This document shows, piece after piece, positions 1,973 through 59,611 of a stretch of DNA of 59,611 nucleotides. The translations under genes and the position numbers were made by a program. Source of the DNA: a virus (Duplodnaviria; Caudoviricetes); IMG/VR virus record IMGVR_UViG_3300049434_000096, positions 1 to 59,611 of that record. One strand, 5' to 3'. Numbering within the stretch: the stretch's first letter is position 1; each line of letters begins with the position of its first letter. Below the pieces are notes generated by a model, which was not told the origin of the DNA, searched no databases, and saw nothing but the letters and a program-made list of their open reading frames with translations.

Positions 1973-2023
1973 TGCGCCGTCTGCCCTTGCCCTCCGCCCT
2001 GCCCCTCGTCCATCCCCACCCGC

Positions 2024-2326
2024 ATGGGCAACAGCGGCCGGATCCAGACTCGTCAGAACATGCCGGCCTGGGTCCAGACCGTCGGCGCGATGCTGGCCGA
2101 GGGGTGCGAGGTCCGGGCGATGTGCCAGGTCTGCCGGCGGTGGGAGCCCGTCGACCTCGCCAAGATCGCGGCGGCCAAGGGCCCGGACTATTCCCTGATC
2201 GACCGGCGCTCGAGATGCCGGTTCACGCCGGGATGCAAGGGCTGGGTGCGGTTCGCCTATCTGCTCGGCGTGTTCCGGCCGCTTTGGACGACCGCGGCGG
2301 CGGAGAGGTGGATGCGAGGGTCGTAG
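2024..2326 (+). CDS. Hypothetical protein with CxxC/CxxxxxC putative Zn ligands
   Basis: CQVC...CRFTPGC; GC-rich codon usage. Confidence 0.65.
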   Translation: MGNSGRIQTRQNMPAWVQTVGAMLAEGCEVRAMCQVCRRWEPVDLAKIAAAKGPDYSLIDRRSRCRFTPGCKGWVRFAYLLGVFRPLWTTAAAERWMRGS

Positions 2327-2387
2327 CTGGCGGGCGGGCCGAGTCGACGTCCCCGGCCTGCCCTGCGCGACGGGACGGGCGGCCGTA

Positions 2388-2588
2388 ATGGGCTGGGATT
2401 GGCTTATCGAGGGGGATACGCGCTGGCGTGTCCAGCGCGCGCAGCGGAAGAAGCCAGGCCCGCGCATGACGCCGGAACGCGCCGACGCGCTCAGAGCAGC
2501 CGTGCGGACAGACGCGACCGATGAGGAGATCGCCGCCAGCTTCGACATAGGGCTCGACATGCTGCAGCGGTATCGGGGGCGGGGATGA
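2388..2588 (+). CDS. Small HTH-like hypothetical protein
   Basis: ATDEEIAASFDIGLDMLQRYR resembles an HTH; ATGA overlap with next gene. Confidence 0.55.
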   Translation: MGWDWLIEGDTRWRVQRAQRKKPGPRMTPERADALRAAVRTDATDEEIAASFDIGLDMLQRYRGRG

Positions 2589-3166
2589 CCCAGCTCGTCT
2601 TCCCAGTCATCGACCCATTCGCCAGCGGCTACATCGAGCGGAGCGCGCGCTTCATAGGCGGCAACCGGATCGAGCTGCGGCGCCGTTGGGCCCACAAGGG
2701 CCGGACCGCGGCGGTGATCGGCCACAATCCGAGCGACGCGGGCGAGGACCGGGACGATCCGACGTCGGGATGGTGGATCAAGTGGTTCCGAGAGAATGGC
2801 TTTGCCGAGTATCGTGCCGCCAACCTCTACCCGTTCGTCACCTCGTCGCCGGCCGAATGCCGCAAGCGGGCCGACTGGCAGAACAGCGGGCCGGATTGGT
2901 ACGCGCGCGACGCGATCTGCGACAACTTGGCCGAGCTATGCAAGATCACCGCCGCAGTCGATCAGGTCTTCGTCTGCTGGGGCGCGATCGCCTCCGACGG
3001 CGACTGGACCGAGCAGGTGATCGAGGAAATCGCCTGCAACGGCGGCAATCCCGCGCTTTGGTGCTGGGGCTTCAACGCCGACGGCAGTCCGAAGCATCCC
3101 ATGGCGCGCGGTCGGCACCGGATTCCGTCTGGGCAGAAGGCGCTGCTCTGGCGCGCGCCGCTATGA
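2585..3166 (+). CDS. DUF1643 domain protein
   Basis: IGHNPSDA..DDPT, ANLYP, VCWG, GSPKHP motifs typical of DUF1643. Confidence 0.85.
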   Translation: MTQLVFPVIDPFASGYIERSARFIGGNRIELRRRWAHKGRTAAVIGHNPSDAGEDRDDPTSGWWIKWFRENGFAEYRAANLYPFVTSSPAECRKRADWQNSGPDWYARDAICDNLAELCKITAAVDQVFVCWGAIASDGDWTEQVIEEIACNGGNPALWCWGFNADGSPKHPMARGRHRIPSGQKALLWRAPL

Positions 3167-4353: not shown

Positions 4354-4629
4354 ATGATGATGTCGAAGCCTATCGCCTATGTCGCCTCGCTCGATTGCGG
4401 CAACTGCACGCTCTCCGGCCACGGTGCTACCAAGCGCTCGGCCATGGCTGCCTTGGACGCGGCGATCTTCGAGCATGGCGAGGCCCGCGGTTATCTCGAC
4501 AATTGGTACGTCCCGCTGGCCGGATCGGTGACGCTGCAGCCTATCATCCTCGGCTCGGCGTGGTGCGACCGCAAGCAGCTCGAGGGCATCAGCGAGAAAG
4601 ACGAGATACGCGCCCGCGACCCCGACTAG
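4354..4629 (+). CDS. Hypothetical protein
   Basis: GGAAGGGA SD just after hammerhead 1; ATG run 4354-4362. Confidence 0.7.
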   Translation: MMMSKPIAYVASLDCGNCTLSGHGATKRSAMAALDAAIFEHGEARGYLDNWYVPLAGSVTLQPIILGSAWCDRKQLEGISEKDEIRARDPD

Positions 4630-4669
4630 CGCTGGGCCCCAAGTCTCCCCCACCACACGGAAAGGAACG

Positions 4670-4900
4670 ATGATGAGCAAGCAGTGGACTCCCGCCGACG
4701 ACGCAGCCGCAGCCCGTGAGGGGTGGGGAGTGTTCGAGGTTGGCGGAGAGGTCGATCTCGATGGTCAGTTCGAGATACAGCGTGACGACGAGGCAGGCAC
4801 GTTCGGCGACGACGAGGCAGCCTTGGCCCATGTGCGCGAGAGAGCGAAGCAAGGCAGCGGCCTGCACCGGCGAGCCCTCGTTCGCACCGTCACCGTCTAG
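4670..4900 (+). CDS. Hypothetical protein; its TAG stop is part of hammerhead 2
   Basis: GAAAGGAA SD; EGWGVF..IQRDD..F.DD.AA. Confidence 0.75.
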   Translation: MMSKQWTPADDAAAAREGWGVFEVGGEVDLDGQFEIQRDDEAGTFGDDEAALAHVRERAKQGSGLHRRALVRTVTV

Positions 4901-4971
4901 GCGAAACCGGACGAGCCCCACGGCTCCCCGGTCTGGGCGAGATGAGCGCCGCCCACTGATGAGCCTGCTCA
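4899..4971 (+). ncRNA. Type II hammerhead ribozyme 2, predicted cleavage after GUC at 4933
   Basis: AGGC-GAAA-[stem III CCGG..GAGCC/GGCUC..CCGG]UC-[stem I UGGGCG/CGCCCA]-CUGAUGA-GCCU; loop I UGAGC (4943-4947) pairs with 3' GCUCA (4967-4971). Confidence 0.92.
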
Positions 4972-4988
4972 ACGAAAGGACTGAGACT

Positions 4989-5099
4989 ATGGATACCGTG
5001 TTGGGCTCCGCGCCCGCTGCCATCGTGATCCTGATCGCCTTCGTGACGCTGATAGGCGCCGCCGCGGCCCTCATCCCCTCCGACCGCAAAGGAAGATAG
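4989..5099 (+). CDS. Small single-TM peptide (36 aa)
   Basis: GAAAGGA SD; MDTVLGSAPAAIVILIAFVTLIGAAAALIPSDRKGR. Confidence 0.65.
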   Translation: MDTVLGSAPAAIVILIAFVTLIGAAAALIPSDRKGR

Positions 5100-5103
5100 G
5101 GTC

Positions 5104-5313
5104 ATGTTGGACATTATCGCCGCCACCTTCCCGCGCCTGGTCGTGGCCCTGCGCCGTACCGGGTGCAGCCGATCGGACGCGGCCCGCCTGATCCTCGCCG
5201 CCCGCTTCGGCGAGCGCGCCACGGCATGGTGCAGCGAGGATTGCGCCCGGGCTCGCCGGATCATCGGGGCCGCGGTCCGCCAGCGCCGGGCTCGGCTGCA
5301 GGGAGGGTGTTGA
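5104..5313 (+). CDS. Hypothetical Arg-rich protein
   Basis: SD-like AGGAAG upstream; tightly packed in operon. Confidence 0.55.
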   Translation: MLDIIAATFPRLVVALRRTGCSRSDAARLILAARFGERATAWCSEDCARARRIIGAAVRQRRARLQGGC

Positions 5314-5314
5314 G

Positions 5315-5641
5315 ATGGCACGCATCCGATGCCCGAACGAGCCCGATCCTCTAGGAGGAGATCTCGTCGGCTGCGGCAAGACGTTCGACGGCGCCTTGGT
5401 CGCCGCCGTGTTCGAGGGCGCGGGCCGCGTGGCCGTTCTCGACGCTGGCTTGGCGCTGGAGAGCGTGGAATTCTCGGTCAATAGCTGGCGGGGCGACGAT
5501 TTCGAGCCGGCCCTGCGCGCGGCGATCGCCATCTACGAAGAGGGCCGAGACGCCGAATGGCGCGCCCAGCAGCAAAAGCGTGGCGTCGCGGCGCGCTACA
5601 TTCGGCCGGCTCTGCGCCTCGTCGCGGGTGGCCGGCGATGA
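5315..5641 (+). CDS. Hypothetical protein
   Basis: GGAGGG SD; packed in operon. Confidence 0.6.
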   Translation: MARIRCPNEPDPLGGDLVGCGKTFDGALVAAVFEGAGRVAVLDAGLALESVEFSVNSWRGDDFEPALRAAIAIYEEGRDAEWRAQQQKRGVAARYIRPALRLVAGGRR

Positions 5642-6006
5642 GCGCGCCGCGAGCCGATTTAAGCCCCGCTGAGCATAGCCCGAGCGCGGCGGCTGTAACC
5701 GGAGGCTCGGCCCTCGCGCCACAGCGTAGCGCCAGCGAGGCGGGCGGGAAGACGGCAAAGCCGGCCCGAGGGTCGATGGGCCCAGCCTTTGGCAAGCTTG
5801 GGCCCGCTGATCGCGCTTTGCTGACCTCGTCCGCCACCCTTGGGCGCCGAATCAACGTCCAGCGACTCGCGCGCGGCAAGATCGGTGTTGGCATCGACGG
5901 CATGCGCTACCCGCTCAGCTTGGCGCGATCGCGAGCGCGGCGCGAGCTTCCCCCTTCGATGGAAAGACAGCCTGACCCCCGTTCGATGGAAAGGCCCGGA
6001 CTGTGA
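5638..6006 (+). CDS. Hypothetical protein
   Basis: ATGA/GTGA overlaps with both neighbours; low-complexity N-terminus. Confidence 0.4.
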   Translation: MSAPRADLSPAEHSPSAAAVTGGSALAPQRSASEAGGKTAKPARGSMGPAFGKLGPADRALLTSSATLGRRINVQRLARGKIGVGIDGMRYPLSLARSRARRELPPSMERQPDPRSMERPGL

Positions 6007-6482
6007 ACGCGCCAGCTCGCGAGCGCCTGTTGCGCCGTTACCTCGCTATGCGTCACCAGCGCCAAGTTGACCGCCTCGCCCTCGATGCGGCCGGCGATTA
6101 CGTCCGCCAGGCCGATGCGGAGCGGGACGCGGCGAAGGCGGACGCTCGGGCCGCGGGGCCGCCCTTCGCGATCTTCGATCATCTCCAGTACGGCCACCAG
6201 GGCACCGGCCCTGACCGGAAGCGGGCGTGGGACAATCCGGGGCTGGGCTTGGTGGAACTGCTGCATCAAGAGCGTGACGCGCGCACCGTTCGGCTCGCCA
6301 CGGCGGATCAGACGATTGCAACCATGGAGCGGGCCAACGAGCGACTCGCTGACGAGGTGATCCGACTGAGCGGCCGGGCCATCCGGGCCGAACAGGAGCT
6401 GCGGCGCCTTCGCGCCCCGCCTCCGCTGGCGATCGCCGACATGCGTGCGCCCCGCGCGATGGAAAGCGATGTGTGCCAATGA
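6003..6482 (+). CDS. Hypothetical coiled-coil protein
   Basis: GTG start overlapping upstream stop; helical heptad-like C-half. Confidence 0.6.
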   Translation: MNAPARERLLRRYLAMRHQRQVDRLALDAAGDYVRQADAERDAAKADARAAGPPFAIFDHLQYGHQGTGPDRKRAWDNPGLGLVELLHQERDARTVRLATADQTIATMERANERLADEVIRLSGRAIRAEQELRRLRAPPPLAIADMRAPRAMESDVCQ

Positions 6483-15602: not shown

Positions 15603-17734
15603 GCCGCCACCGCCACGCTGCAGGTCGTTCCGTCGAACTCGATGCCCCCGCCGCTGGTTGGCAGCGCGGCCCATAGCTCGACGTCGTAGTCGCCGTTGGC
15701 CGGCGCCGCGGTCTGGTTGCAGCTCACCGACCCGGGCGAGGGATTGTCGACGTCGGCGACCGACGTTGAGCCGGTGACGGGTGAGCCGAAGTCGGTCGGC
15801 GAAGCGAAGTTGGTTCCGGCGACGGCGTAGCGCCACTTCAGCGCGGCCGCCTTGGTCCCGCCGCCGATCACATAATATTGGTAGCCGGGCGCGGCGTAGG
15901 CGCGGATCGTCTCGCCCGTTGCCTTGGTGACAGTGATCCGGGCCCCGATCCTGACGTAGGTCGTGCTGCTGATCTGGTCGGTCGGCCCGAACGAGCCGGA
16001 CTTGTTGCCCGTCCCGCCGCCTGTTCCGGTGCCGCCGGTCGGAGGCTCGGCGTCGGCCCGGGTGAACGGGATGCGCTGGACCGGCTGGGCCACCCCGGCG
16101 ACGGTAACGGCGAGGTCGATCCAGCCCGACACTGCGGACATGGCCGTCACCGTGATCTTGCCCTTGTCGACGCTGCCGCCGGTATTGTTGATCGTGGCGG
16201 TGACGTTGACCGGTGTCCCGATCGAATAGGTCGTGGCGGTGTCGGTCCGGATCGAGACGCCGCCCCGGGTCACGATCGGCGTCAGGACGCGCGGGAACGC
16301 GCTCGAGGGAATGACGCCGAGATAATCGGCGCTGAACGTCTGCGGCGGCGGCGCGACGACGGCGATCTGCGTGTTCGCCGTGACGTCGCCGCCCATGATC
16401 GACCAATAGGCGTTCGACGTCGCGGGCAGGGTCGGCGGGGCATGGCCGCTGGCGCGGGTGTCGAACTGCCACAGCCAATTGACGCCCTGGTCCTGCACGA
16501 AATTGCCGTCGGTGTAGATCTCGGTCGCGCTGTAGGCGCCGCGGTCGCGCAGCGGGCCGAACGTCGCGATCTCGTCGGCGCTATGGACGCGCCACGATCG
16601 GGCCCCGCCCATGGCGATGCGCCAATACGGCGTCGAGACGTCGGCCTCGACGTTCTGGGTCACCAGCGGCAGGGCATGACCTTGCGCGTCGAGCGTGATC
16701 GCGGGCGCGCCGGCCGCAACCTGCACCACGAACAGCTTGCCGAGCCAGGAGATGCCGGCCTGGGCGTTGCAGGGCCGAGCAAGGCGGCGCGCCACGTCGA
16801 GCACGCTGGCCTGCTCGGTCAGGTAGAGGTTGATGTAGCCGTGACCCGGCAGCAGCACGTAGAGAGCGTTATCCAGCGCGGCGAGGCTCGTCGTGTCGAT
16901 CAGCGCCGCATCGACTCCGGCGTGGAGCGCGATGCGGGTGACGATGTCGCCCGTCATCCTGAGCCAATTGCCGCTTTCGACGTGGCCGTCGACGTCGGCC
17001 GTGATCAGGCCGTAGGCCGGTGCGCCGAGCCGGATCAGACCTTCGGCGATGCAGGTGCCCCAGCCGCCGCCCGGGATCGTGGCGGCGAGCAAAGCGGCAT
17101 AGCTGGCATAATTGCCGGTCGAGGCGCCGAAGTCCTCGCCGCGCTCGAACAGGGCGACGACGGCCTGGATCGGGCCATAGGCCGAGACCTGGTAGACGTT
17201 GTCGACCGCATTGATGAGCACCGGCTCGACGTTGAGGCAGCGGCCGAACAGCCACGGCTTCGCCTTGCCCTTGAGGTTGGCGTCGCCCTCCGCGCCGCCT
17301 GTTCCGGCATAGGTCGCGGTCAGAGCGTCCGCCTCGAACGGCTCGGTATTGACCGCGGCGGTGAGCTTGAGCGCCGTGCCGTCCGCTTCCCAGCGCTGGA
17401 CCTTGCCGACGAACCAAGTGCCCCACGGCCACGCCGCGCCCGGTTCGCCGCGGTAGAGGGTGACCGGGGCGCCGGCCCAGAGGTAGCGGCCGACATTGGC
17501 ATCGAGGACGCCGCCGAGCTGGAGCGTGAACGCGACTTGCCCCGGCTCGACGTCCGAGCTGAAGTCGCCGTCGAACAGCTTCATCGTCTGCGTCGGCATG
17601 GCCGACATTGCCGGGAACCAGGTCTGGCCGTTCAGGCCGGTAATGTCCCGGTTCTGCGCCGAGGCGGCGCGGACATAGGGCCGGGTATCGGTCGCGGCGT
17701 CGCGCGGGGTGAGCTGGGCGAGCAGGGCCGCCAT
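15599..17734 (-). CDS. Tail tip/hub-like structural protein
   Basis: Directly follows the tape measure gene; GGAEG..LKGKAKP..FG.CLNVEP motif; beta-rich C-terminus. Confidence 0.75.
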   Translation of the reverse strand: MAALLAQLTPRDAATDTRPYVRAASAQNRDITGLNGQTWFPAMSAMPTQTMKLFDGDFSSDVEPGQVAFTLQLGGVLDANVGRYLWAGAPVTLYRGEPGAAWPWGTWFVGKVQRWEADGTALKLTAAVNTEPFEADALTATYAGTGGAEGDANLKGKAKPWLFGRCLNVEPVLINAVDNVYQVSAYGPIQAVVALFERGEDFGASTGNYASYAALLAATIPGGGWGTCIAEGLIRLGAPAYGLITADVDGHVESGNWLRMTGDIVTRIALHAGVDAALIDTTSLAALDNALYVLLPGHGYINLYLTEQASVLDVARRLARPCNAQAGISWLGKLFVVQVAAGAPAITLDAQGHALPLVTQNVEADVSTPYWRIAMGGARSWRVHSADEIATFGPLRDRGAYSATEIYTDGNFVQDQGVNWLWQFDTRASGHAPPTLPATSNAYWSIMGGDVTANTQIAVVAPPPQTFSADYLGVIPSSAFPRVLTPIVTRGGVSIRTDTATTYSIGTPVNVTATINNTGGSVDKGKITVTAMSAVSGWIDLAVTVAGVAQPVQRIPFTRADAEPPTGGTGTGGGTGNKSGSFGPTDQISSTTYVRIGARITVTKATGETIRAYAAPGYQYYVIGGGTKAAALKWRYAVAGTNFASPTDFGSPVTGSTSVADVDNPSPGSVSCNQTAAPANGDYDVELWAALPTSGGGIEFDGTTCSVAVAA

Positions 17735-20700
17735 TAGAAGTTCACGATCGCGCCGTAGTCGTGGGACGGCTCGCCGCCGGCCGACGCGCCCTGGCGGACC
17801 AGCGCGCCGACATTGTCATTGAGCGCGTCGAGCCGGCCGCCGAGCTCGGAGACCAGCACGCCGCCGAGCCGGTCGATCGCGGTGACGGTCTGGGTGTCGC
17901 CCGCCGTCACGGTGTCGGCGCCGAGCGGGCCGGGCCGGGCCGTGACGATCGAGATCAAATTCTCCTGCCCGGCCAGCGCGTCGCGGGTCAGGCGCGTCAC
18001 TTCGTCCAGCGCCTGGAAATACGGGTTGGTCGAGCCCGAAATCTGCCGCTGCAATTCAAGGACGAGCCGCGCCGCCTCGGCGAAGGCGTCGTAATCGACG
18101 GTCCGGTCCCCGGCCGCGACGCGCGTCGCGAGCGGGTCATATTTGGCATGGGCGGCGGCGAGGCGCTCCCTAAGCGAGATGGCGTCGTTGTTGACGGTGA
18201 GGTCGTCGAGCAGGGACTTCAGCGCCGACGTCATCCGCTGGCCCGCCTGCGTGATCGCATCGGCTCGTTCCAGCGCGTAGAGCTGCTCGAGCTGGGCATA
18301 TTCCTCGGCGCTGGCCCCGGCATCGGCAAAGACGCGCTTCAGGTTGGCGAATTCCTTGTCGAGGGTGTCGAGCGCGGCACCGACCGGATCGAGCCGGGCC
18401 TTGAGCCGCTCGAACACGCCCTCGAACTTGAGGGCTTTCTCTATTCCGCTATCGATGTCCTTGGCGGCGCGGAGCAGGGTCTGCGTGCCTTGGCGCAGGC
18501 CCTCGATTACGCCATCCTTGATCAGGTCCAGCACGGCGGCGCGGACCGCGGCCTCGGCATCCTCGCCGAAGTCGATCGCGCCCTTCTTGGTCTTGGTAAT
18601 GCCGCGCCCGGTCGGGTCGACCCGGTACTTGCCGTCGCGCATCCCGATGGAAACGGCGCCGGCCGCCGCGTTGACCGAGCCGCCGAACAGCTCGGCGATA
18701 CGCGCCACGGTGGAAAGCACGGAGTCGGCCGCTGTCGTAGTTTGGCCCCGCACGGTGCGCGACCCGGTCGAGCCGGTCACGGCAAGGTTGCCGCCCGCTC
18801 CGGCACCGATCGTCGAGGAGGCGCGCGGCGGGGAGAAGAACAGGGAGCCGAGCGCCGTGCCGGCGACGCCGAATGCGGAGAGCGGATTCTGCCGCAGCCC
18901 CAGCAGGCCTTCGAGCTTGGTCTGGATCGGCTTGAAAAAGGCGTTGTACATCGAGGCGCCTTCCAGCGCGCCGCTGATCAGGTTGCCGATCGTCGCGCCG
19001 AACCGCTCGCCGAACACTTGGGTCGCAAGCTCGGTCGCCATGATCCTGGCGAACTGGCGCGGGCTCATCCGCTCGGTCGGATCGGTGCCGCGCTGGGCCG
19101 TGACGACGATGTCGCCGTTGTCGTTCGCCGCAGCGGCTCGGGCGGCGCTGTCCATCGAGGCGCGGCTCAGCACGTTCGCCAGCGCCTCCCCGGCCCGGGG
19201 AGCGGCATCGCTGAGACTGGCGATGACGGCGTCGAGGTCGTGCAGCCCGGTGCCGAGACGCTCGATCGCCGCCGTGGTCTGAGCCGCCTGCTCAGGGAAC
19301 CGGAACGTCGCCGGGTCGACATCGCGGCCGGCGACCCTGACCCGGTAGTGGAGGTGCGGCCCGGTCGCATGGCCGGTCTCCCCGACGTTTCCGACCACAT
19401 CGCCCGCCGTGACGGTCTGCCCGGCGCGCAGCGAGGATTGGCGGATCAGGTGCGAATAAGACGAAACGATGCCGCCGCCATGGTCGATGACAACGTTGTA
19501 GCCGCTGCGCGCGTCGTAGCCGACCGTGACGACCCGGCCCGAAGCGCGCGACGTGACGGCGGTGCCGAGTGCGGCCGCGATGTCGAGGCCGGCCGAGTTG
19601 CGCGCGAGATGCTGGGCGAAGGTGTTGGTGATGCGGCCCTGAACCGGCAGGCCGGATAGCGAGCGCGATGCGGCGGCGCCGACACCGCTCGCCGCCGCCG
19701 ACGGGACGGCGGACAGCCGGTCCGCCGCGACGTCCACGGCCGAGCCGAACCGTCCGAGCCGGTCGATGACCTGGTCGATCGTGTTGATCTCGGTCCGGTG
19801 CGCCGTGCCGAGATTGGCCATTTCGGCGCGCACCGTTCCGATCGAGCCAGCCATCTCCTCATTGGCCTGCCGGACTCTGTCCCGCCCGGTGATCTGATCC
19901 TCGAGCTGGCGGAACGTGTTGCCGAACAGGCGCTCGACCAAGGCCTCGGCACTAAGCTGTCGGTAGGCTTGCGCGATGCCGGAGATGCTCGACAGGGCGT
20001 GCGCCGGCGCTGCGGCGATGTCGACGAGGCTGGAGCGGACCTGCCCGGCGAAGTTGAGATAGAGCTGCTGTCGGGCGCGAATGATTTCGAGCTGCCGGGC
20101 CTGCTCGCTCAGCGCGACGACGCTGGCGAGGATGACCTGCTTGCGCTCCTCGCCGAGCGGGCCGAGCTGCTCCTCGAGCCGGTGGATGATGCCGAGCGCA
20201 TCGGCCTCCTCCTGCCGGCCCTGCGCGACGAGCTGGCCGACTGCATAGGAGCGGACCTGATCGGCGAGGAACTCGCGATAGGGCCGGACCAGCGCGTCGG
20301 TCACGGTCTGGCCAGCCGCGGCGATGCGGGGCGCAAGGTCGGGGAATTGCTGCGCCGCCGCTTCCAGCTGCTCCAGCGCCAGCGTTGCGCGCTGAACCAG
20401 CTTCGGCGCCTCGCCGAAACCTTCCGTGATCTGCCGGATCAGCCCGTCGCGGATCGAGGCGCGCGCCGTCTCGGCGCCGCGTTGCATCTCGTCGAAGCGG
20501 GGCAGCTTGCGGCGCTGCGCCTCGGCCAGGACCTGGTCGAGCTCGCGCACGGCCTGAACCGCGCGGTCGACGAGCCGGGGCTGGTCGTTCCACGCCTCGT
20601 TGATGCGCGTGATCTGCTCGATCGAGGAGGAGGCCTGCTCGGGGCGGTGGTCTTCGCGCGGGCGGCGCTCATGACCGGTGCGGCGGAGCGAGGGATCGAG

Positions 20701-22044
20701 ACGCCCTTCGTCGAGCGAGCGCGTGGTCAGCTCCGCAATTCGCTGGTTCGCCTGTCCGCGGGCTTGGTCGATGACCGCCTGCCGGAAGTCGTGGGCGGAG
20801 AGGCCGGCCGAGCTACGGGCAAAATCGGGCCGCGCGCTCGCGGCGAGCGCGGCGTTGCGCGCCGCCTCCAGCGCCGTTTCCGCGCTCCGGCGCGCTGCGT
20901 CTCCGCTGGCCGCGTCGAGCCGCTGCTGCGCATTCTCGATGGCCTGCAACAGCTGCCGCTGCTCGCCGGCTGCTCGTTCCAGAGATTCGAGACGCTGGCC
21001 CGGCGTGCTGCCGCGCAACGGAGAGAGGTAGGCGCCGATATTTTCGCCTATCGAGGTCGGCTCGGTGCCCTCGCGGAACAGCCGTCGGGCGTTCTCCTCC
21101 TGCTCCATTCCCTGCAATTGGAGGTTGAGGGCCGTCACCCGGGCATTGAGCCGCATCAACTCGATATGCTCGCGCAACGCGCCGGCCTGATCGCGCAGCT
21201 TACCGGTCGTCATGTCGAAAATCTCGCCGAGCGCGCTTTGCGCCTCGCCAAGCCCGTCGGTCGCGTGCTGAGCGTCCTCGGCCGCGCTAGAGGTGCGGTT
21301 GAGGCCTTGGATTAGGTAGCCGAGCGCGGCGACTCCGAGGAAGATCGCGGTGCCCCACGGCCCGGCGATGAACCGGCCGAATGCCGCCGCGCGCCCGGTC
21401 ATCTGCGACATCGCGAATCCAAGTTGCGAGCCTTGCTGAACAAGTATAGTTAAAGCGGATGTTCCCATCTGCGCTTGGATAGCCACATCTTGAAGCTGTT
21501 GCCCAACTTGGACCATAGCAAATCTCGACGCTCTCGCACTATTTGAGTAGGCATCTTGTGAATTGACTAGTTGCCTGTTAGCTCCAATTACTGCGGTGGT
21601 GCGCGACGCGGTCTGGTTCAGCTCGGCCTGGACCCGCTCCATCGAGGTGGCGAATTGATTTTCGGCGGCCGCGTTATCCGCCGCCTGGATCGCCGCGGCC
21701 CGATAGGCCTGAATGAGGACGCGAGTCTGCTCCGACATGTCGCCCGTGGCGCGCGCCGCACGTTCGGCGGCCGTCGCGACCTCACGCAGCGCGATGGCCT
21801 GAGCGTCGGCCGCTTGTGCCGCGGCCCGATATTGTCCGACGCCGAGGTCAAGGGAGCCGCCGGCGTTGCGGGGCATGGTGAGGGCGCGCTGGGCGATGCC
21901 CTGGATTTCGGAGAAGCTGGTCTCAAACTGGCGCCGGGTGCGATCGGCCGAGGCTGCGGCCTGCTGCTCGAACTGCGCAAAGCCGCTCCCCGGCCGGTAC
22001 TCATCGGTGATGAATGCCGGGAAAATCGAGCTGCGGGAGGCCAC
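17734..22044 (-). CDS. Tape measure protein with internal M23 peptidase domain
   Basis: 1436 aa, Ala-rich helical; lambda-type VGQQLQD..VQQGSQL block; AGLDIAA..SSYSHL..TGPHLHY. Confidence 0.9.
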   Translation of the reverse strand: MASRSSIFPAFITDEYRPGSGFAQFEQQAAASADRTRRQFETSFSEIQGIAQRALTMPRNAGGSLDLGVGQYRAAAQAADAQAIALREVATAAERAARATGDMSEQTRVLIQAYRAAAIQAADNAAAENQFATSMERVQAELNQTASRTTAVIGANRQLVNSQDAYSNSARASRFAMVQVGQQLQDVAIQAQMGTSALTILVQQGSQLGFAMSQMTGRAAAFGRFIAGPWGTAIFLGVAALGYLIQGLNRTSSAAEDAQHATDGLGEAQSALGEIFDMTTGKLRDQAGALREHIELMRLNARVTALNLQLQGMEQEENARRLFREGTEPTSIGENIGAYLSPLRGSTPGQRLESLERAAGEQRQLLQAIENAQQRLDAASGDAARRSAETALEAARNAALAASARPDFARSSAGLSAHDFRQAVIDQARGQANQRIAELTTRSLDEGRLDPSLRRTGHERRPREDHRPEQASSSIEQITRINEAWNDQPRLVDRAVQAVRELDQVLAEAQRRKLPRFDEMQRGAETARASIRDGLIRQITEGFGEAPKLVQRATLALEQLEAAAQQFPDLAPRIAAAGQTVTDALVRPYREFLADQVRSYAVGQLVAQGRQEEADALGIIHRLEEQLGPLGEERKQVILASVVALSEQARQLEIIRARQQLYLNFAGQVRSSLVDIAAAPAHALSSISGIAQAYRQLSAEALVERLFGNTFRQLEDQITGRDRVRQANEEMAGSIGTVRAEMANLGTAHRTEINTIDQVIDRLGRFGSAVDVAADRLSAVPSAAASGVGAAASRSLSGLPVQGRITNTFAQHLARNSAGLDIAAALGTAVTSRASGRVVTVGYDARSGYNVVIDHGGGIVSSYSHLIRQSSLRAGQTVTAGDVVGNVGETGHATGPHLHYRVRVAGRDVDPATFRFPEQAAQTTAAIERLGTGLHDLDAVIASLSDAAPRAGEALANVLSRASMDSAARAAAANDNGDIVVTAQRGTDPTERMSPRQFARIMATELATQVFGERFGATIGNLISGALEGASMYNAFFKPIQTKLEGLLGLRQNPLSAFGVAGTALGSLFFSPPRASSTIGAGAGGNLAVTGSTGSRTVRGQTTTAADSVLSTVARIAELFGGSVNAAAGAVSIGMRDGKYRVDPTGRGITKTKKGAIDFGEDAEAAVRAAVLDLIKDGVIEGLRQGTQTLLRAAKDIDSGIEKALKFEGVFERLKARLDPVGAALDTLDKEFANLKRVFADAGASAEEYAQLEQLYALERADAITQAGQRMTSALKSLLDDLTVNNDAISLRERLAAAHAKYDPLATRVAAGDRTVDYDAFAEAARLVLELQRQISGSTNPYFQALDEVTRLTRDALAGQENLISIVTARPGPLGADTVTAGDTQTVTAIDRLGGVLVSELGGRLDALNDNVGALVRQGASAGGEPSHDYGAIVNF

Positions 22045-34763: not shown

Positions 34764-35972
34764 TCACGCCCCGACCAAATCGCGATACAGAAGCGGCTGA
34801 ACCGTCCCATCGCCATAGACCGAGTCGAGCCAAACATCGGCGCGCGGCTCATCTCCCTCCCACTTTTCAGGGAAAGTTCGCGCCGCGATCAACTCCCGAA
34901 TTCGCGCTTCCTCTTCCTCGTTAATGAGATCGACGCGCGCACGCTTCTGAATGTCGAGTATTCGTTCCAGCGCCTCCGACCTGGCCTCAAGCGTGAGCGG
35001 CCCCATCCGCTGCGGGTTTTTCGCGATCGAGCCATCCTTGAGCCGCTCAACGCCCCGCTTGCGCAACCGCTGCTCGGGTTTCCGCATCCACCGGTAGAGC
35101 GGCTTCAACTCCATCAGCGGAGAGAGGTGCGCCCACGCCGGCATGGCGATCACCGTCTCTAGCGCCGTGTCGCGGGCCGCCAACGGGCAGCCGATGCAAC
35201 CGGTCCGAGCGTTGATCTCCTCGGCCTCGTCGCCGCCATAGGCATCGGCGAGGATGCGCGTCGGCCAGCCGCCGAACTCAGGCTGCGCCGCATAGAATTT
35301 GAGCCAGTCCCAAACGATGCAAACCCGCCAGTGAAGGATCGGTGCCAGAGTCGCTACGCGGCCCTTAATCCCCTTCGCGTTGGGCAGAACCTGCTGATAC
35401 CAGCCTTGACCGCACTCCGCCCCATCCTTGGAGCACGACATCTTGATCCGTCCGTCGCGCACCGCGCTTTCACCCTCACGGACCCCGGTGATCATAAGCG
35501 CCGTGCCGGGCAGCGCCGTGATCGCTTCCTCCAGCGCCGCGGCCATTGGCTCGACCTTGATCTGCCGCGTGCACCATCGCAGAGTGTTATTGTTGGGCGG
35601 CGGCACGCCGCGCCCCAGAATGTAGACCATGAATCGCTTGTCGATCGGTGCGCGCACAACTCGCACCTCGATCCAATTCCGCTCGCGCAGCTTGGCCATG
35701 ATCAGCTCGGCGGCGGCCTGCAGAGGCGGCAACTCCTGGCGAGTATCTGCGTAGAAGACGTACAGCCGCTCGGGCTGAGGAAGTTCGCCGGCATCGATCA
35801 AGTGGATTAGCAGGGTCAGGGTGGCTGTGCTGTCCTTGCCGCCTGACCATGCTACCGCGACGTGATCGTGATGCGGCCAATAAGCGCGGAGAGACTGGAG
35901 CGTCAGGTCCACCGCCTCCTCGTGGACCATGCGGACTCCGCCGGAGAAAAGGTTGTCGGCGGGCCGGTTCAC
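34764..35972 (-). CDS. PAPS-reductase family protein, DndC-like
   Basis: AWSGGKDS PP-loop, LGRGVPPP, RWCT..IK, ARTGCIGC, GPLTLEAR. Confidence 0.85.
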   Translation of the reverse strand: MNRPADNLFSGGVRMVHEEAVDLTLQSLRAYWPHHDHVAVAWSGGKDSTATLTLLIHLIDAGELPQPERLYVFYADTRQELPPLQAAAELIMAKLRERNWIEVRVVRAPIDKRFMVYILGRGVPPPNNNTLRWCTRQIKVEPMAAALEEAITALPGTALMITGVREGESAVRDGRIKMSCSKDGAECGQGWYQQVLPNAKGIKGRVATLAPILHWRVCIVWDWLKFYAAQPEFGGWPTRILADAYGGDEAEEINARTGCIGCPLAARDTALETVIAMPAWAHLSPLMELKPLYRWMRKPEQRLRKRGVERLKDGSIAKNPQRMGPLTLEARSEALERILDIQKRARVDLINEEEEARIRELIAARTFPEKWEGDEPRADVWLDSVYGDGTVQPLLYRDLVGA

Positions 35973-43178: not shown

Positions 43179-43448
43179 GGCCTACCAGCCCCCCGACCAA
43201 ATGGAGGGACGATCAAAGCGAGCAGGACGAACCGGGAGCGGATCAATGGAGCCTCCCCGTCCAGCCGCGTCCCCAGCGCGTCGTCGCATAGAGCGCCGAG
43301 CCGGCCGACAGGATCGCGATCGCGGTGCAGGTCCAGACCCCGGTCATGCCGCGCCTCCGGCGGAGGAGTGGGCGTCGGACACCCCTCCACCTTTGGGGCG
43401 CGGCGGGCTATGGAGGGCCGGCCGCGAAGGGTTGCTGGAGCGGCGCAT

Positions 43449-43649
43449 CTATGCCGCCACCGCCGTCGATTCGGCTCCATATGTCAGCATGTACCGACGC
43501 ACCTTTTCGACGGTGGCGCGCCGCAATTCGCGGCCATCTCGGAGCTGGCCGATGAGGCGAGTGTCGTTCGCGGCCTTGCGGCCGAACGTGGTCTCCGCGA
43601 TCCCGTGGGCGTCGCGAAAAGCCTCGATCTCGGAAAGGAGGTCGTCCAT
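43449..43649 (-). CDS. Cro-like protein
   Basis: LLSEIEAF...IAETTFGRKAAND..LI..LRDGR; divergent from the repressor. Confidence 0.8.
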   Translation of the reverse strand: MDDLLSEIEAFRDAHGIAETTFGRKAANDTRLIGQLRDGRELRRATVEKVRRYMLTYGAESTAVAA

Positions 43650-43660
43650 CGCGCCGATAT

Positions 43661-43710
43661 GCGACGGATTAATCCGTCGCGTCAAGCGTCTCGTGACGGA
43701 TTTATCCGTA
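43661..43710. promoter_or_regulatory. Operator pair: GCGACGGATTAATCCGTCGC (43661-43680) and GACGGATTTATCCGTA (43695-43710)
   Basis: Palindromes between cro and repressor; the first fills the spacer after the minus-strand TTGACG; TTGATG-N17-CATAAG faces the repressor. Confidence 0.85.
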
Positions 43711-43751
43711 TGTTGATGCCGTCCGTCGCCGCCCCCATAAGCGGGATCGAA

Positions 43752-44198
43752 ATGGCGCGGGCGACTATAGACATCGAACGTGTGAAACAGGTCTTGCGCG
43801 AGGCCACGAAGGACGATGGCTCATTCAGCCAGCGCGGGCTACCGAAAGCCGCAGGGTTAGCTAAAGACGCCGTCTACGACATCATCGCCGGCCGAAACAA
43901 AAATCCTACGATTGCGACTCTTTCGTCCCTAGCGCAGGCGCTTGGAGGGAATCTTTCCATGTTCGGGCTGAGCCAAACCTTTGCACTTAGTGAAGAAGAA
44001 CTGCGCGCCGAACTGGAGGTGGCCCTGCCGCATATGCCGACGGCGGCATCGAGCCCTGCCGAGCAAGCTCAATATCTCGCCGAAGCCGTTGCAGGCGCTC
44101 TTGGGCTTCCGAGAACTGTACAAGCAGATCCTCCGAGACGGCCGGCGCGGCGCGGCAGGCCCGCAGCAGCCGTAGCTCCCTTTCCTCCCAAAGCCTGA
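43752..44198 (+). CDS. XRE-family HTH repressor (cI-like) lacking an S24 peptidase domain
   Basis: SQRGLPKAAGLAKDAVYDIIAGRNKNPTIATLSSLAQAL. Confidence 0.8.
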   Translation: MARATIDIERVKQVLREATKDDGSFSQRGLPKAAGLAKDAVYDIIAGRNKNPTIATLSSLAQALGGNLSMFGLSQTFALSEEELRAELEVALPHMPTAASSPAEQAQYLAEAVAGALGLPRTVQADPPRRPARRGRPAAAVAPFPPKA

Positions 44199-44467
44199 GG
44201 TGGATATTGAGGACTGCGCAATTCCGGTGGCACGGCTCGCACCCCGACTCGCAGCCGGGCTCCTCTAACAACAGGGGTTTCGTACTCGCCATTCCACTTC
44301 TCCAGCCCCATGTTCCTTTTCCGTTCTCCGAAGCTATTTCCAACATTGCAAGGCCAGAATTCAGGCGCCCCCGCCTGGCCGCCGGACACGCATGGGGCCG
44401 GACAGCCTGTCAGCGTACCGTAGTCTCCACAGGGCCGCCAGATACCCAAAAGGGGGTACGTGCGCGC

Positions 44468-44878
44468 GTGAAGACGGCCAATGTGGCCCATTGGGCGCTC
44501 GTAGCCGCAATCGCCTTAGCAGGCTGCGCCCGGCAGCCGTCGCCGGCCGAGCAGAACGCGCAAACCGCCGCGGGCTTGGCCGAGCTCAGGAGGCTCAGCG
44601 ACACTCTGAACCGCCTCGAGGCGGACGAACGAGCAAGGCGGCGGCCGCACGGTCGATCCGATTCGCGACCCAGGAGGGCGCAGCGCGAGGAGCCCGCTGA
44701 CCTGTGCTGGCAGGACTACTGCCCTTGCGAGCAGCCGCAGGGCGGGCCCGATGAGTTTCTATGCCGCCGGCTGCGGGCTGGGTTGCCAGTGGATGACGAG
44801 CAGATGTCGATCGGCGCGGGGATGCGCGATGCACGCCGCCAGATACGGGACTTCGAGGCCACGAACCCAGCCTATTGA
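44468..44878 (+). CDS. Lipoprotein with Cys cluster
   Basis: ALVAAIALAG-C lipobox; CWQDYCPC...LC. Confidence 0.65.
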   Translation: MKTANVAHWALVAAIALAGCARQPSPAEQNAQTAAGLAELRRLSDTLNRLEADERARRRPHGRSDSRPRRAQREEPADLCWQDYCPCEQPQGGPDEFLCRRLRAGLPVDDEQMSIGAGMRDARRQIRDFEATNPAY

Positions 44879-44890
44879 TGATGCTCTGGC

Positions 44891-45484
44891 TCACACAATT
44901 GCAGCCTCCACCGCCAGCCGAATCGCTTCGGCCACGCTTCCGACCCCAAGGCTCTGAAGCATTGCGGCCCGGTGCATTTTCACCGTCTCGACCGCCAGCC
45001 CAAGGCGTTCCGCAATCTGTCTGTTTCGATGGCCAGAGGCGAGCCCCCACAATATCTCGCGCCGACGCGGCGTAAGCTGGGCAACGAGCCGCCGCGCGGT
45101 TTCCCGCCGCCCTTCGGCGGCGACCAAGCCGACATCGACTTGAGAGCCCAGATAGAATGCCAGCTCGCCATCGTCGCCGAATACCGGCGCAACCATCATC
45201 GCGTTGCGAAACGCCGATCCGTCTCGTCGGTAGTTCCATATCTCGGTGATGGCAGGCTGGTGGGCGGCAACGGCGTGGCGGACGACGGCGCGCGCCGCTT
45301 CCTCGCTCATTGGGCCCTGAAGGAAGCGAGGGTTTCGGCCGATCGATTCGCCGGCCTCGTAGCCGGTGAGGTGGCTGAAGGCCTCGTTGACAGCGACCAG
45401 GGGATTATCGGGACGCCTCGGATCGGTGATCGCAAAGGCGATCCCACTGTCGGCTATTCCGCTCAACAATCCGTCCAGGTCCAT
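44891..45484 (-). CDS. EL222-like LOV + LuxR-HTH transcription factor, Cys-to-Pro LOV variant
   Basis: ITDPRRPDNPLVAVNEAF..LTGY, GRNPRFLQ, NYRRDGSAFRN, YLGSQ; LTPRRREIL..RNRQIA..LGLAVETVKMHR. Confidence 0.93.
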   Translation of the reverse strand: MDLDGLLSGIADSGIAFAITDPRRPDNPLVAVNEAFSHLTGYEAGESIGRNPRFLQGPMSEEAARAVVRHAVAAHQPAITEIWNYRRDGSAFRNAMMVAPVFGDDGELAFYLGSQVDVGLVAAEGRRETARRLVAQLTPRRREILWGLASGHRNRQIAERLGLAVETVKMHRAAMLQSLGVGSVAEAIRLAVEAAIV

Positions 45485-45519
45485 GCTCCATATACACATT
45501 TTCCGACCAACCAGTGCTC

Positions 45520-45573
45520 GACGGAGATATCCGTCATTTGATGCTTGACTGACGGATAAATCCGTCACATTAA
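45520..45573. promoter_or_regulatory. Operator pair: GACGGAGATATCCGTC (45520-45535) and TGACGGATAAATCCGTCA (45550-45567), with promoter TTGACT-N17-CATTAA
   Basis: Same GACGGA-N4-TCCGTC consensus as at cro/cI. Confidence 0.85.
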
Positions 45574-45598
45574 CGCTCCCCTGACACGGGGAGTTCGA

Positions 45599-45853
45599 AT
45601 GTTGCACGACCGGAAACATGTGGTGGGCGTGGCGGCCGGCGTGGCAGCCCTGATCGGCTGCGCGGGCCAGCCTGCCGTGGTTTACCGGTGCGTCGATGCC
45701 GGCACGGGCGAAAGCTTTATAGCGGTCAAGCGCAATATCTGGACGCCTCGGCGTTCGAATATCACCATCGTGGATGCGGAGGATGGCAGCAGGAGAATCT
45801 ATTCCGGCTCCTATCACATTACTTGCCGCCCGGCCGAGGGCTTGGCCCGATGA
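45599..45853 (+). CDS. Small lipoprotein-like protein
   Basis: GGGGAG SD; AAGVAALIG-C. Confidence 0.55.
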   Translation: MLHDRKHVVGVAAGVAALIGCAGQPAVVYRCVDAGTGESFIAVKRNIWTPRRSNITIVDAEDGSRRIYSGSYHITCRPAEGLAR

Positions 45854-46170
45854 CCGCCCCCGACCTCTCCGCCCTCACCCACGCCCAAGCCTCGGCGCTG
45901 GAGCAGATCGCCGGCGCTGCGATCCTGCAGATGCTGACGCGCCAGTCCAACGCGCGGGAAGCCATTGCGAACGGTGGAAGCGACCGCTGGGTAATCCAGA
46001 ACCATTTCGACCTTGCCGACGCTCAGCGCCTCGAAGCAGCGGCCCGCCAGTTCGAGCGCGCCGCCCATGACCGGGCGCTGAAGGCCGGGCGCGACGAGTG
46101 CATCGCGGCCCGGGTGATCCATGCCTTCGCGATCGAGGCGATGCGGGCGCCGATGGCGGTGGCGGCGTGA
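45850..46170 (+). CDS. Hypothetical protein
   Basis: ATGA overlap. Confidence 0.6.
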   Translation: MTAPDLSALTHAQASALEQIAGAAILQMLTRQSNAREAIANGGSDRWVIQNHFDLADAQRLEAAARQFERAAHDRALKAGRDECIAARVIHAFAIEAMRAPMAVAA

Positions 46171-46499
46171 TGGCCGAGTCCCTGATCTTCGAGCCCCACA
46201 ACGGCTTTGGCCGCGTCGATCCGTATGGCGAGCCGTGGCCGTTCGGCTACCTCAGCGAGGGGCCGGGCGCGCCGGTGTTCGAGTTGTCCGTGCCGCTGCC
46301 ACCGCACCCGGTCGAGAAGCTGCTCGACATCGCGCTCAAGGCGGCCGCAGCGCCGGAGCTTTACGAGGCGCTGGCTGCGCTCGTCGAGGAGCATGTCAAG
46401 CGCGGCGGCGCCTTCGATGAGCCGCTGGGATCGAGCGAGCAGACGCCGGAAATCAACGCCGGCATGGCCGCCCTCGCGAAGGCCCGGCCAGCGTGCTGA
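46170..46499 (+). CDS. Hypothetical phage protein
   Basis: AAAPELYEAL...AALAKA motif common in phage early genes. Confidence 0.65.
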   Translation: MAESLIFEPHNGFGRVDPYGEPWPFGYLSEGPGAPVFELSVPLPPHPVEKLLDIALKAAAAPELYEALAALVEEHVKRGGAFDEPLGSSEQTPEINAGMAALAKARPAC

Positions 46500-46762: not shown

Positions 46763-47050
46763 ATGAGCGGCGCGCCAGCGGTCGAGGCCCTGCTCGCCCG
46801 GCAGTTCGGCACCCGCGCGTTCACCTACGTCACCACGTTGCGCGGCAAGCATGCCGACGGCGGCCTCGACGCCGACTCCCTCGACCTCGTCCAGCTCGCG
46901 GTGAACATCGAGAATCGGTTCGAGATCAACGTTGCCGATGACGACGTCGAGAAGGTCGAGACCGTTGGGGACGTGATCGCGCTGGTCAATCGGAAGGTTG
47001 CGGCGCGCCCCCAGCCCAACGAAGATGAAAGGAACGCCGCCCGTGGCTAA
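46763..47050 (+). CDS. Acyl carrier protein-like
   Basis: LDADSLDLVQLAVNIENRFEI.V.DDDVEKV.TVGD with the phosphopantetheine Ser. Confidence 0.85.
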   Translation: MSGAPAVEALLARQFGTRAFTYVTTLRGKHADGGLDADSLDLVQLAVNIENRFEINVADDDVEKVETVGDVIALVNRKVAARPQPNEDERNAARG

Positions 47051-58028: not shown

Positions 58029-58427
58029 GTGGCTGAGCCCCTCATCGCCGAGATCACCAGGCGCATCCGCCGCTCGGTCAAGAACGGCGGCCGCCTGCAC
58101 CTAGAACCGGCCCACGCCCGGACCTTGATGCAACCGAGAATTTATGCGCTCCTAGCGACAATCGAAGCCGAGGAAATGGAAGCGATATGCCAGACCGACC
58201 CGGATCCAGCACCGCAACAGGGCGGCGCGCCGCCAAGCCCATCTCCTCTGCCACCACTCCGGCGCAGGCCGGCCAACGATTCGAGCTCGGGCGGTTCTGG
58301 CTCTGGTACAGGCCCGACCGGGACGATTGGAACATCTGCTGGCTCGACAGTCGAGTCGTCCGCCGCAAGGCGACAGGTGTTGGCGGTGGTGGAGACTATC
58401 CGCCAGAGGGCGCGCGGGAAGCGCTAG
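58029..58427 (+). CDS. Hypothetical protein overlapping the integrase 5' end
   Basis: GGAGGG SD, GTG start; folded-looking N-half, low-complexity overlapped C-half. Confidence 0.5.
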   Translation: MAEPLIAEITRRIRRSVKNGGRLHLEPAHARTLMQPRIYALLATIEAEEMEAICQTDPDPAPQQGGAPPSPSPLPPLRRRPANDSSSGGSGSGTGPTGTIGTSAGSTVESSAARRQVLAVVETIRQRARGKR

Positions 58428-59611
58428 CCGACCATTGGGCCGCGGACCGGGCCGAGGCGCTCAAGGTCGCGCCGGCCGTCGCCCTGCCGCCCGGCGAGGT
58501 ACTGGTGCCCGATCTGGTCGCGCTCTGGCTCGAGCAGCACGTCGCTGGCCTCGACGCGCCGGAGCGCTATCTCGACTCGGTCGCGGTCTGGGAGCGGTTC
58601 TGGTCGATGCTCGCGGCCGACGGCCTGCTGCCCGATCCGCTGACCGTATCGGCGATTACCGGGCCGCTCGTCGACCGATTCATCGCGTTCCGCGGTGCCG
58701 AGGGCGCCGCGCCACCGACCATTTCGCGCGACATCGCGGCGCTGCGCGGCCCGATCCGCTGGGGCCTCGACAACAACCGCCTCGCCGCGGCGCCGAAGAT
58801 CAAGGACGTGAAGGGGCGCAAGAGGATCAAGGCGCTGGAATGGAGCCCGGAGCAGGTCGCGGCGCTGCTCGAGGCGGCCGCTGCGACGCCGGATCGGGCC
58901 CATGTTCACCTCTACGCGATGATAATGCTGAGCACCCATGCCAGGAGCGAGGCGGTGCTCGAGCTGAACGCAGAGACCCAGATCGGGCGCGGGCAGATCG
59001 ACTTCCTGCGGCCCGGCGAGGAGCAGACGCGGAAGCGGCGCGCCATCGTGCCGATCTGTCCGACCCTGGCGCCGTGGCTGGCCGGCGTCCGGGGCAAGGT
59101 CATTCGCTACCGGGTGCCGACGTCGGCACGGACGCGGGCCGACGGCGGCGAGGAATGGTTCGAGCGGCCGACCAGCGACATCGGCAACGCTTTCGCCGGC
59201 GTCCTGCTCGCGGCCCACGAGCTGCGGCCCGACCTCGGCTTTGCGCGGCAGATGTCCGATGAGAGCGGACAACTGGAATGGCTGCCGCCGCGGCCCAAGC
59301 TCGGCGAGACGACGCGCCGCGCCAAGCTGCGCCCGATCGGCACGCCGAACACGCTCAGGCATACGATCCACACCTGGCACAAGCGCCAAGGCGTTCCCGA
59401 CGCTCAGATCGACGCGGCCGCGGGCCATAGCGAGGAAGGGACCGGCGCCAGCTACACCCACCTTCGGCCCGAATATCTGCGCGAGTTCATCGCGTCGACC
59501 GAGGCTTTCTGGGAAGCGGTCGGGGAATTTACCGACGCGCATCTGCGATACCCGCGCGATACCAAGGTCGTCGCCATCGGGGCGGGCCGGTCCAGAGGAA
59601 ATGGAGAATAA
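58187..59611 (+). CDS. int: Tyrosine recombinase (phage integrase)
   Basis: THARSEAVL (R), PNTLRHT, AAGH, SY; TISRD core-binding segment. Confidence 0.9.
   Translation: MPDRPGSSTATGRRAAKPISSATTPAQAGQRFELGRFWLWYRPDRDDWNICWLDSRVVRRKATGVGGGGDYPPEGAREALADHWAADRAEALKVAPAVALPPGEVLVPDLVALWLEQHVAGLDAPERYLDSVAVWERFWSMLAADGLLPDPLTVSAITGPLVDRFIAFRGAEGAAPPTISRDIAALRGPIRWGLDNNRLAAAPKIKDVKGRKRIKALEWSPEQVAALLEAAAATPDRAHVHLYAMIMLSTHARSEAVLELNAETQIGRGQIDFLRPGEEQTRKRRAIVPICPTLAPWLAGVRGKVIRYRVPTSARTRADGGEEWFERPTSDIGNAFAGVLLAAHELRPDLGFARQMSDESGQLEWLPPRPKLGETTRRAKLRPIGTPNTLRHTIHTWHKRQGVPDAQIDAAAGHSEEGTGASYTHLRPEYLREFIASTEAFWEAVGEFTDAHLRYPRDTKVVAIGAGRSRGNGE

Follow-up and report, generated by a model that had tools for sequence, protein, structure and literature searches.

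The window analysed here is a stretch of 59,611 nucleotides that makes up a provirus record of IMG/VR, 96% complete according to CheckV, which sits in a 310-kb contig of a soil Sphingomonadales MAG. Its phage genes encode a large terminase, portal, protease, tape measure, DnaB, exonuclease VIII and a PAPS-reductase-like protein, together with two DNA methylases, a ligase and a tail-fibre chaperone domain. The gene under study, whose product is called P0001 here, sits centrally within the regulatory region of the provirus rather than at an edge (Table 1). Its open reading frame (ORF) is intact, with zero internal stops in 197 codons, and shows a GC3 of 0.72 compared to 0.81 to 0.89 in core phage genes. 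A 21-kb contig of the Logan assembly covers positions 43400 to 46200 with 0 differences and is probably from the same soil sample, hence non-independent.

Table 1. Features of the provirus window and of corresponding regions in related records; rows that name an L record use the numbering of that record
Feature	Position	Strand	Remarks
Tape-measure-like protein	17734..22044	-	1436 aa; metallo-endopeptidase/endolysin-like domain at residues ~800-950
PAPS-reductase-like gene	34764..35972	-	phrog_12882, 1.7e-221; between terminase and replication genes
Cro-like small protein	43449..43649	-	Divergent from cI-like gene; no Pfam or PHROG match
First palindrome pair	43663..43710	.	43663-43678 perfect, 43695-43710 one mismatch; between Cro-like and cI-like genes
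cI-like HTH regulator	43752..44198	+	HTH_3, 5e-4 (weak, below cutoff); phrog_1373/4268; true end uncertain, overlaps antisense ORF
Small antisense ORF	43987..44346	-	C-x3-C-x2-C-x3-C-A...I.L.WW motif; convergent to and overlapping the cI-like 3' end
Putative lipoprotein	44468..44878	+	Lipobox L-A-G-C by eye; convergent with LOV-HTH gene; GC3 0.79; no family match
LOV-HTH gene (P0001)	44891..45484	-	197 aa; EL222-type one-component regulator without adduct Cys
LuxR/GerE-type HTH	44912..45079	-	Residues 136-191; TVKMHR recognition-helix motif, family-invariant
LOV-like PAS core	45131..45412	-	Residues 25-118; N84, N94, Q115 kept
GRNPRFLQ motif	45317..45340	-	Within 45315-45345 of the preliminary description
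Pro52 codon CCT	45329..45331	-	Occupies the adduct-forming Cys position
Second palindrome pair	45520..45566	.	45520-45535 and 45551-45566, both perfect; LOV-HTH start 35 bp away, early operon on the other side
Putative small lipoprotein	45599..45853	+	Lipobox L-I-G-C by eye; first gene of rightward early operon; divergent from LOV-HTH gene; no family match
Acyl-carrier-protein-like gene	46763..47050	+	Rightward early operon; Pfam PP-binding, 1.3e-6; phrog_5934, 5.7e-12
Integrase	58187..59611	+	Right provirus end; ORF reaches window end; Pfam Phage_integrase, 5.9e-7
L075 slot genes	4477..5233	-	Pair of 181 aa and 93 aa
L076 slot gene	1044..2042	-	332-aa protein
L077 slot gene	706..1626	-	306-aa protein, low GC3
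L074 small Cys-motif ORF	506..1003		C-x3-C-x2-C-x3-C
L075 small Cys-motif ORF	5625..5930		C-x3-C-x2-C-x3-C
L076 small Cys-motif ORF	2230..2619		C-x3-C-x2-C-x3-C
L078 small Cys-motif ORF	6000..6299		C-x3-C-x2-C-x3-C

The EL222-type architecture consists of an N-terminal LOV domain, a J-alpha linker and a C-terminal LuxR/GerE HTH in ∼190 to 230 residues. P0001 shows homology to this type over its full length and is nested within the family tree. Pfam assigns residues 25 to 118 to PAS_9 (1.5e-12) and residues 136 to 191 to GerE (2.1e-14), and HMMER aligns query residues 9 to 196 with EL222 from Erythrobacter litoralis HTCC2594 (8a5r, E 4e-50; 3p7n, E 1.2e-49). The two proteins have the two-domain architecture and the length class in common, as well as the pocket Asn residues, the signalling Gln and the TVKMHR recognition helix. 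The blocks NY(R/K)KDG, F..N and GSQ all line up, and Pro52 stands opposite the Cys of the EL222 motif GRNCRFL (C78 in UniProt numbering), followed by RFLQ in P0001 in contrast to RFLA in EL222. The preliminary description of this DNA had read GRNPRFLQ in place of GRNCRFLQ and had considered the flavin-pocket residues and the signalling Gln to be retained. The alignment agrees on both points: N84, F92, N94 and Q115 are all present, with NYRRDG at residues 84 to 89 and the signalling Gln115 at the end of YLGSQ (residues 111 to 115). A Trp occupies residue 83, just before the flavin-contacting Asn84; the six commonest residues of this column among 184 Cys-bearing family members are Leu, Val, Ile, Thr, Arg and Ser, so that Trp is not one of them. 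The side chain of Trp83 may point to the face of the β-sheet against which the HTH of EL222 docks.

P0001 shows the PAS fold and the Asn/Asn/Gln pocket of canonical LOV photoreceptors but not their adduct Cys, which is replaced by Pro52, and is thus kept out of that class. In the available part of their paper, Yee et al. 2015 define LOV* proteins by the lack of the Cys together with at least 9 other conserved LOV residues, in YtvA numbering G59, N61, R63, F64, L65, Q66, N94, N104 and Q123 (PMC4682037). With the mapping to YtvA made by motif equivalence, P0001 contains 9 of these 9 equivalents; its flavin-motif residues are G49, N51, R53, F54, L55, Q56, N84, N94 and Q115.

The AF2 model of P0001 obtained with a 149-sequence alignment reaches a pLDDT of 94.9 and a pTM of 0.90, values that belong to a model which may partly echo known structure and is silent on the cofactor. 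Foldseek places it on full-length EL222 (3p7n and 8a5r) with a TM of 0.88 to 0.91 and an rmsd of ∼2 Å over 191 to 194 columns at 45 to 46% identity, and on LOV-domain-only structures with a target-normalised TM of up to 0.97. A short helix of residues 52 to 55 begins with Pro52. A model from 20 sequences was poor (pLDDT 73.6, with residues 22 to 56 below 50) and was replaced; since the deeper alignment cured this weakness, the low confidence came from alignment depth.

Loss of the adduct Cys is rare in the family. Among 295 LOV-HTH-like proteins gathered from several protein searches, 290 carry Cys at this position, 287 by the Cys motif and 3, identified by eye, in a variant motif. The five Cys-less members contain Pro (two), Leu (two) or Ala (one). 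The first search with P0001 returned 58 proteins, namely, 56 with Cys, the query itself and its nearest relative P0002 (58 to 59% identity), which carries Leu. An exhaustive representative search added P0073, a protein of 194 residues with 53% identity to P0001 and the motif GRNPRFLQGP. Both P0002 and P0073 keep all other LOV and HTH hallmarks. An IQ-TREE analysis of a set of 189 proteins reduced to 40 representatives at 62% identity, with a bootstrap that had not fully converged, groups the three proteins in the topology (P0073 Pro,(P0001 Pro,P0002 Leu)) with an ultrafast bootstrap of 98 and an SH-aLRT of 96, and supports the inner pair of P0001 and P0002 with 99/89. The proteins stay one clade when the Cys column is deleted (SH-aLRT of 94 in a quick tree). 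The Pro codons (CCN) are one base apart from the Leu codons (CTN). CCT is at least two substitutions away from either Cys codon (TGY), so that a single base error cannot yield Pro52. The preliminary description had named, as an outcome that would speak against its reading, a singleton Pro mutation in a decaying gene; the Cys is also missing from the two nearest relatives of P0001, and all three proteins group in a supported clade.

A neutral or decaying gene, captured from a host and on its way to a pseudogene after loss of its photochemistry, is quite unlikely in view of the intact ORF and of a terminal branch that is short, with a length of 0.45 compared to a median of 0.65. P0001, like the other two members of the Cys-less clade, forms a singleton cluster, as would suit such decay, and its GC3 is below that of core phage genes. 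Of 65 columns conserved at 90% or more, P0001 matches 58, which places it at the 5th percentile of the reference proteins (58; median 64). The departures are mostly conservative, and on the alignment a partly relaxed constraint is conceivable. Against decay, the Cys loss is common to two relatives at 53 to 59% identity in which the other hallmarks are kept, and it is accompanied by a substitution to Gln56. Further changes common to P0001 and P0002 are T60S, F111Y and K155R. Taken by their sequences, these proteins indicate a Cys loss that is probably old, after which the flavin pocket appears to have been kept under constraint and partly remodelled.

The Gln of the RFLQ motif occurs in 4 of 5 Cys-less proteins compared to 4 of 184 Cys-bearing proteins, in which Ala is dominant, as in EL222. 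Three of the four Gln-bearing Cys-less proteins share one clade, so that the count corresponds to ∼2 independent events and not to 4. The gain of this Gln points to continuing selection on the flavin site rather than to its abandonment. Tyr111 is found in 2 of 5 Cys-less and 14 of 184 Cys-bearing proteins. Outside this family, five multi-PAS proteins of 1060 to 2049 residues (P0076, P0081, P0092, P0105 and P0119) contain LOV-like domains with GRNPRF(L/M) or GRNPRLL, which means that the Cys-to-Pro state recurs outside the LOV-HTH family. A metagenome scan with an alignment of P0001 and P0002 gave 52 loci. The LOV motifs in the 72 loci gathered by then all contain Cys except for three Pro matches, which are the P0001 gene itself.

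Natural Cys-less LOV domains are known from BAT-LOV, amb2291 and HsuLOV, as listed in the accessible portion of a preprint (bioRxiv 10.64898/2026.07.30.741865), and the chemistry class is therefore not new. According to the part of Yee et al. 2015 that was available, GenBank holds ∼70 natural Cys-less LOV-like entries, Pro variants included, and an EL222-type protein might be among them (PMC4682037). The same text describes signalling of Cys-free VVD and YF1 via the neutral semiquinone (PMC4682037). In EL222-C78A, light leads directly to a reduced non-adduct state, "lit2," and shifts the protein toward a 2:1 DNA complex, to ∼75% compared to 100% for the wild type, in the available text of the corresponding study (PMC11928941). 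The preliminary description stated that LOV domains without the Cys occur in nature, also with Pro, and can use flavin reduction for signalling; these sources bear this out as far as their available text goes (PMC4682037, PMC11928941).

Each of these systems resembles P0001 in part. EL222-C78A belongs to the same family, has likewise lost the Cys and favours the DNA-bound dimer after photoswitching (PMC11928941, available text), but its Ala is engineered and lacks the RFLA-to-RFLQ change, whereas the Pro of P0001 is natural and comes with RFLQ. BAT-LOV* carries Pro at the same position, and by analogy signalling of P0001 through the semiquinone or hydroquinone would be expected (PMC4682037, in the part available). 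P0001 is a short LOV domain joined to a LuxR-HTH, in contrast to BAT, the large halobacterial bacterio-opsin activator with its receiver, GAF and HTH domains; it is also phage-borne and from Sphingomonadales, whereas the LOV* proteins compared here come from halophilic archaea and Magnetospirillum. BAT-LOV* changes conformation upon flavin reduction, although its photoreduction is described as slow and inefficient in the accessible text, and a Pro variant may therefore be a poor light sensor (PMC4682037).

This poor photoreduction of a Pro-bearing domain, together with the missing adduct Cys, leaves some room for a light-blind regulator, in which the folded LOV-like domain, flavin-bound or not, would serve only for dimerisation or autoinhibition. 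Activity would then be set by the amount of P0001 through a repressor-controlled promoter, as in an ordinary LuxR-type phage or lysogenic-conversion regulator. Transcriptional control of this kind by the phage switch is plausible, since the gene begins 35 bp away from an operator pair whose sequence aligns with the operator region on the cI side. All family-conserved flavin-pocket positions are kept in P0001, including N84, N94 and Q115, and the canonical RFLQ Gln has been gained; both features argue against light-blindness, which is considered doubtful but is to be taken seriously.

The operators in question are copies of the 16-bp palindrome GACGGA-N4-TCCGTC, of which the window contains three perfect copies and one with a single mismatch, only in two divergent intergenic regions. 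The copies are spaced by 32 bp in the first pair and 31 bp in the second. A perfect 12-base palindrome would be expected ∼0.004 times in 59.6 kb by hand arithmetic; at up to two mismatches, 9 palindromes were found compared to 6.04 expected from shuffles. The two operator regions align over the pair and the spacer, with the cI-like gene and the LOV-HTH gene on the same side. A scan of the collection found the paired palindrome in six other IMG/VR records. In 6 of 6, one pair is flanked by homologues of the Cro-like protein (51 to 61% identity) and of the cI-like protein (43 to 51%), and a further operator or pair lies 0.8 to 1.9 kb off on the cI side. None of these six whole records, three of which are 100% complete, contains a LOV-HTH gene in a search whose query detects the gene of the window. 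This assigns the operators to the cI-like/Cro-like switch, with the cI-like protein as the probable binder of the palindromes, and makes the LOV-HTH gene accessory cargo.

The six LOV-HTH-free records also disfavour P0001 as the owner of the palindromes. Its own binding to them as the core of the lysis-lysogeny switch is highly improbable, even with one pair directly upstream of its gene. LuxR-type HTH dimers bind inverted repeats of roughly the size of this 16-bp palindrome, which counts for such binding. The palindrome, however, does not fit the EL222 site RGNCYWWRGNCY given in the available part of the literature (PMC10521638, PMC4428443). At this site, EL222 activates or represses transcription according to the site position, as stated in the accessible text of a further study (PMC5001607). 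The window contains three matches to RGNCYWWRGNCY compared to 1.95 expected, none of them near the LOV-HTH gene, and with one mismatch tolerated, matches around the gene are as frequent as expected. A consensus scan of positions 43000 to 46200 yielded one promoter-like site, located inside the LOV-HTH gene, and zero terminators; no consensus promoter was found in the intergenic region 45485 to 45598.

From the cI-like gene up to the second operator set, each related record contains different genes. Judged by this gene content, the segment is a variable cargo slot, and the LOV-HTH gene occupies the location of an immunity-region moron, a setting that the preliminary description had not noted. 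In lambda, morons of the rexAB/sieB type lie beside cI, between OL and OR. The LOV-HTH gene resembles these lambdoid accessory genes in its position between two operator sets, in a variable slot adjoining the repressor gene. In the window, the slot holds a putative lipoprotein gene that is read in the direction of the cI-like gene, and the LOV-HTH gene, which is read against it. The largest slot ORFs of the four long-slot relatives (L073, L075, L076 and L077) are co-oriented with the cI-like gene, in contrast to the LOV-HTH gene, which starts at the second pair, on the side equivalent to that of cI. The lambdoid accessory genes also differ in function, as they encode exclusion or defence proteins, whereas the LOV-HTH product is a sensor-regulator. 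The slot genes of L075, L076 and L077 are unrelated and look like defence or accessory cargo. The lipoproteins that flank the LOV-HTH gene are possible superinfection-exclusion proteins. A small ORF with the conserved motif C-x3-C-x2-C-x3-C-A...I.L.WW, as in the antisense ORF of the window, occurs in 4 of the 6 relatives, where it likewise converges on the cI-like gene and covers its 3' end. Two arrangements would account for this: a genuine Cys-rich protein next to a shorter cI-like gene, or an overlap between both genes.

LOV-HTH proteins are common in the order of the host, as 105 of 401 sampled Sphingomonadales genomes match at an E value of ≤1e-30, with a best identity of 56%. Of 29 fetched Sphingomonadales loci, 27 carry the LOV motif, and all 27 have Cys. 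This abundance and the family-invariant TVKMHR motif, which makes common DNA sites conceivable, would suit a dominant modulator that heterodimerises or competes with a light-activated LOV-HTH protein of the host and thereby rewires its light regulon. The host MAG (3.4 Mb and possibly incomplete, so that absence is not proven) shows no second LOV-HTH gene, only HTH-only matches and PAS matches at E values of ∼7e-6, whereas the same P0001 query recovers the phage copy within it at 3e-126. The modulation of a host EL222 by heterodimerisation proposed in the preliminary description thus lacks support, and a dominant modulator is very unlikely.

Searches for phage relatives were negative within the collections covered. 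A tblastn search of 50,697 phage records gave 7 partial matches and no full-length homologue, IMG/VR scans with P0001, P0002 and P0073 gave no phage homologue, and PHROGs contained no family matching P0001, with weak matches only. A scan of IMG/VR with the family alignment returned five records, which contain only LOV-histidine kinases, all with Cys. In these five virus or provirus records (L002 to L006), which may include host flank, the LOV-histidine-kinase-type ORFs span 401 to 680 codons from stop to stop and contain the canonical Cys. The loci of P0002 and P0073 were not found in the viral, metagenome or genome collections searched. In the literature searched, no report of natural phage-encoded LOV regulators was found. 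EL222 is chromosomal and P0001 prophage-encoded. Two aspects appear to be new: the maintained Cys-less clade inside the EL222 family and the phage carriage of a Cys-less EL222-type protein, the latter known for P0001.

The explanation favoured here, held with somewhat better than even confidence, is that P0001 is an intact EL222-type LOV-HTH protein from a small, old Cys-less Sphingomonadales clade, which has lost the adduct Cys, is carried as phage immunity-region cargo and works as a flavin-reduction switch. The gene is divergent from the early lytic operon across a duplicated repressor operator pair. The analysis establishes what the protein is, that its gene is complete, its fold, its clade, its place in the phage and the ownership of the operators, whereas flavin binding, the redox/light switch, expression in the lysogen and the targets are inferences. 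By analogy with the Cys-less proteins described above, the LOV-like domain would still bind FMN but would not form the Cys-C4a adduct. The switch would consist of flavin reduction and N5 protonation, driven either photochemically by blue light or chemically when oxygen is low. Gln115 would sense the change in the flavin, the HTH would be freed from the LOV β-sheet, and P0001 would dimerise and bind DNA. Tyr111 might donate electrons internally; its position presumably corresponds to the pocket Phe of plant LOV2. The targets of P0001 would be other than the 16-bp operators of the phage, which serve the cI-like/Cro-like switch.

A wider reading is speculative and rather unlikely: an adduct-free LOV-HTH protein gated by flavin reduction would have been taken over by a temperate phage to feed sensory information into the life cycle of the phage itself. 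If this reading is true, transcription from the cI-equivalent side of the duplicated operators would provide P0001 in the lysogen, where the protein would sense blue light together with the redox or oxygen status of the cell and thereby influence how the prophage is maintained or induced, or a host regulon. The Cys-less flavoprotein might also act as a photosensitiser, with reactive oxygen species feeding the induction pathway. P0001 would then be the first natural phage-encoded transcription factor of the photoreceptor or redox-sensor type. The place of the gene among the immunity genes of a prophage suggests that sensors of light or redox state may travel with temperate phages, a possibility on which no report was found in the literature searched.

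For the family, the finding touches on a workhorse of optogenetics, EL222, and on the active question of how Cys-less LOV domains signal. The Cys-less lineage, with its changes from RFLA to RFLQ and from Phe to Tyr at position 111, would be a natural test of the transition from adduct chemistry to flavin-reduction chemistry and may supply oxygen- or redox-gated optogenetic parts.
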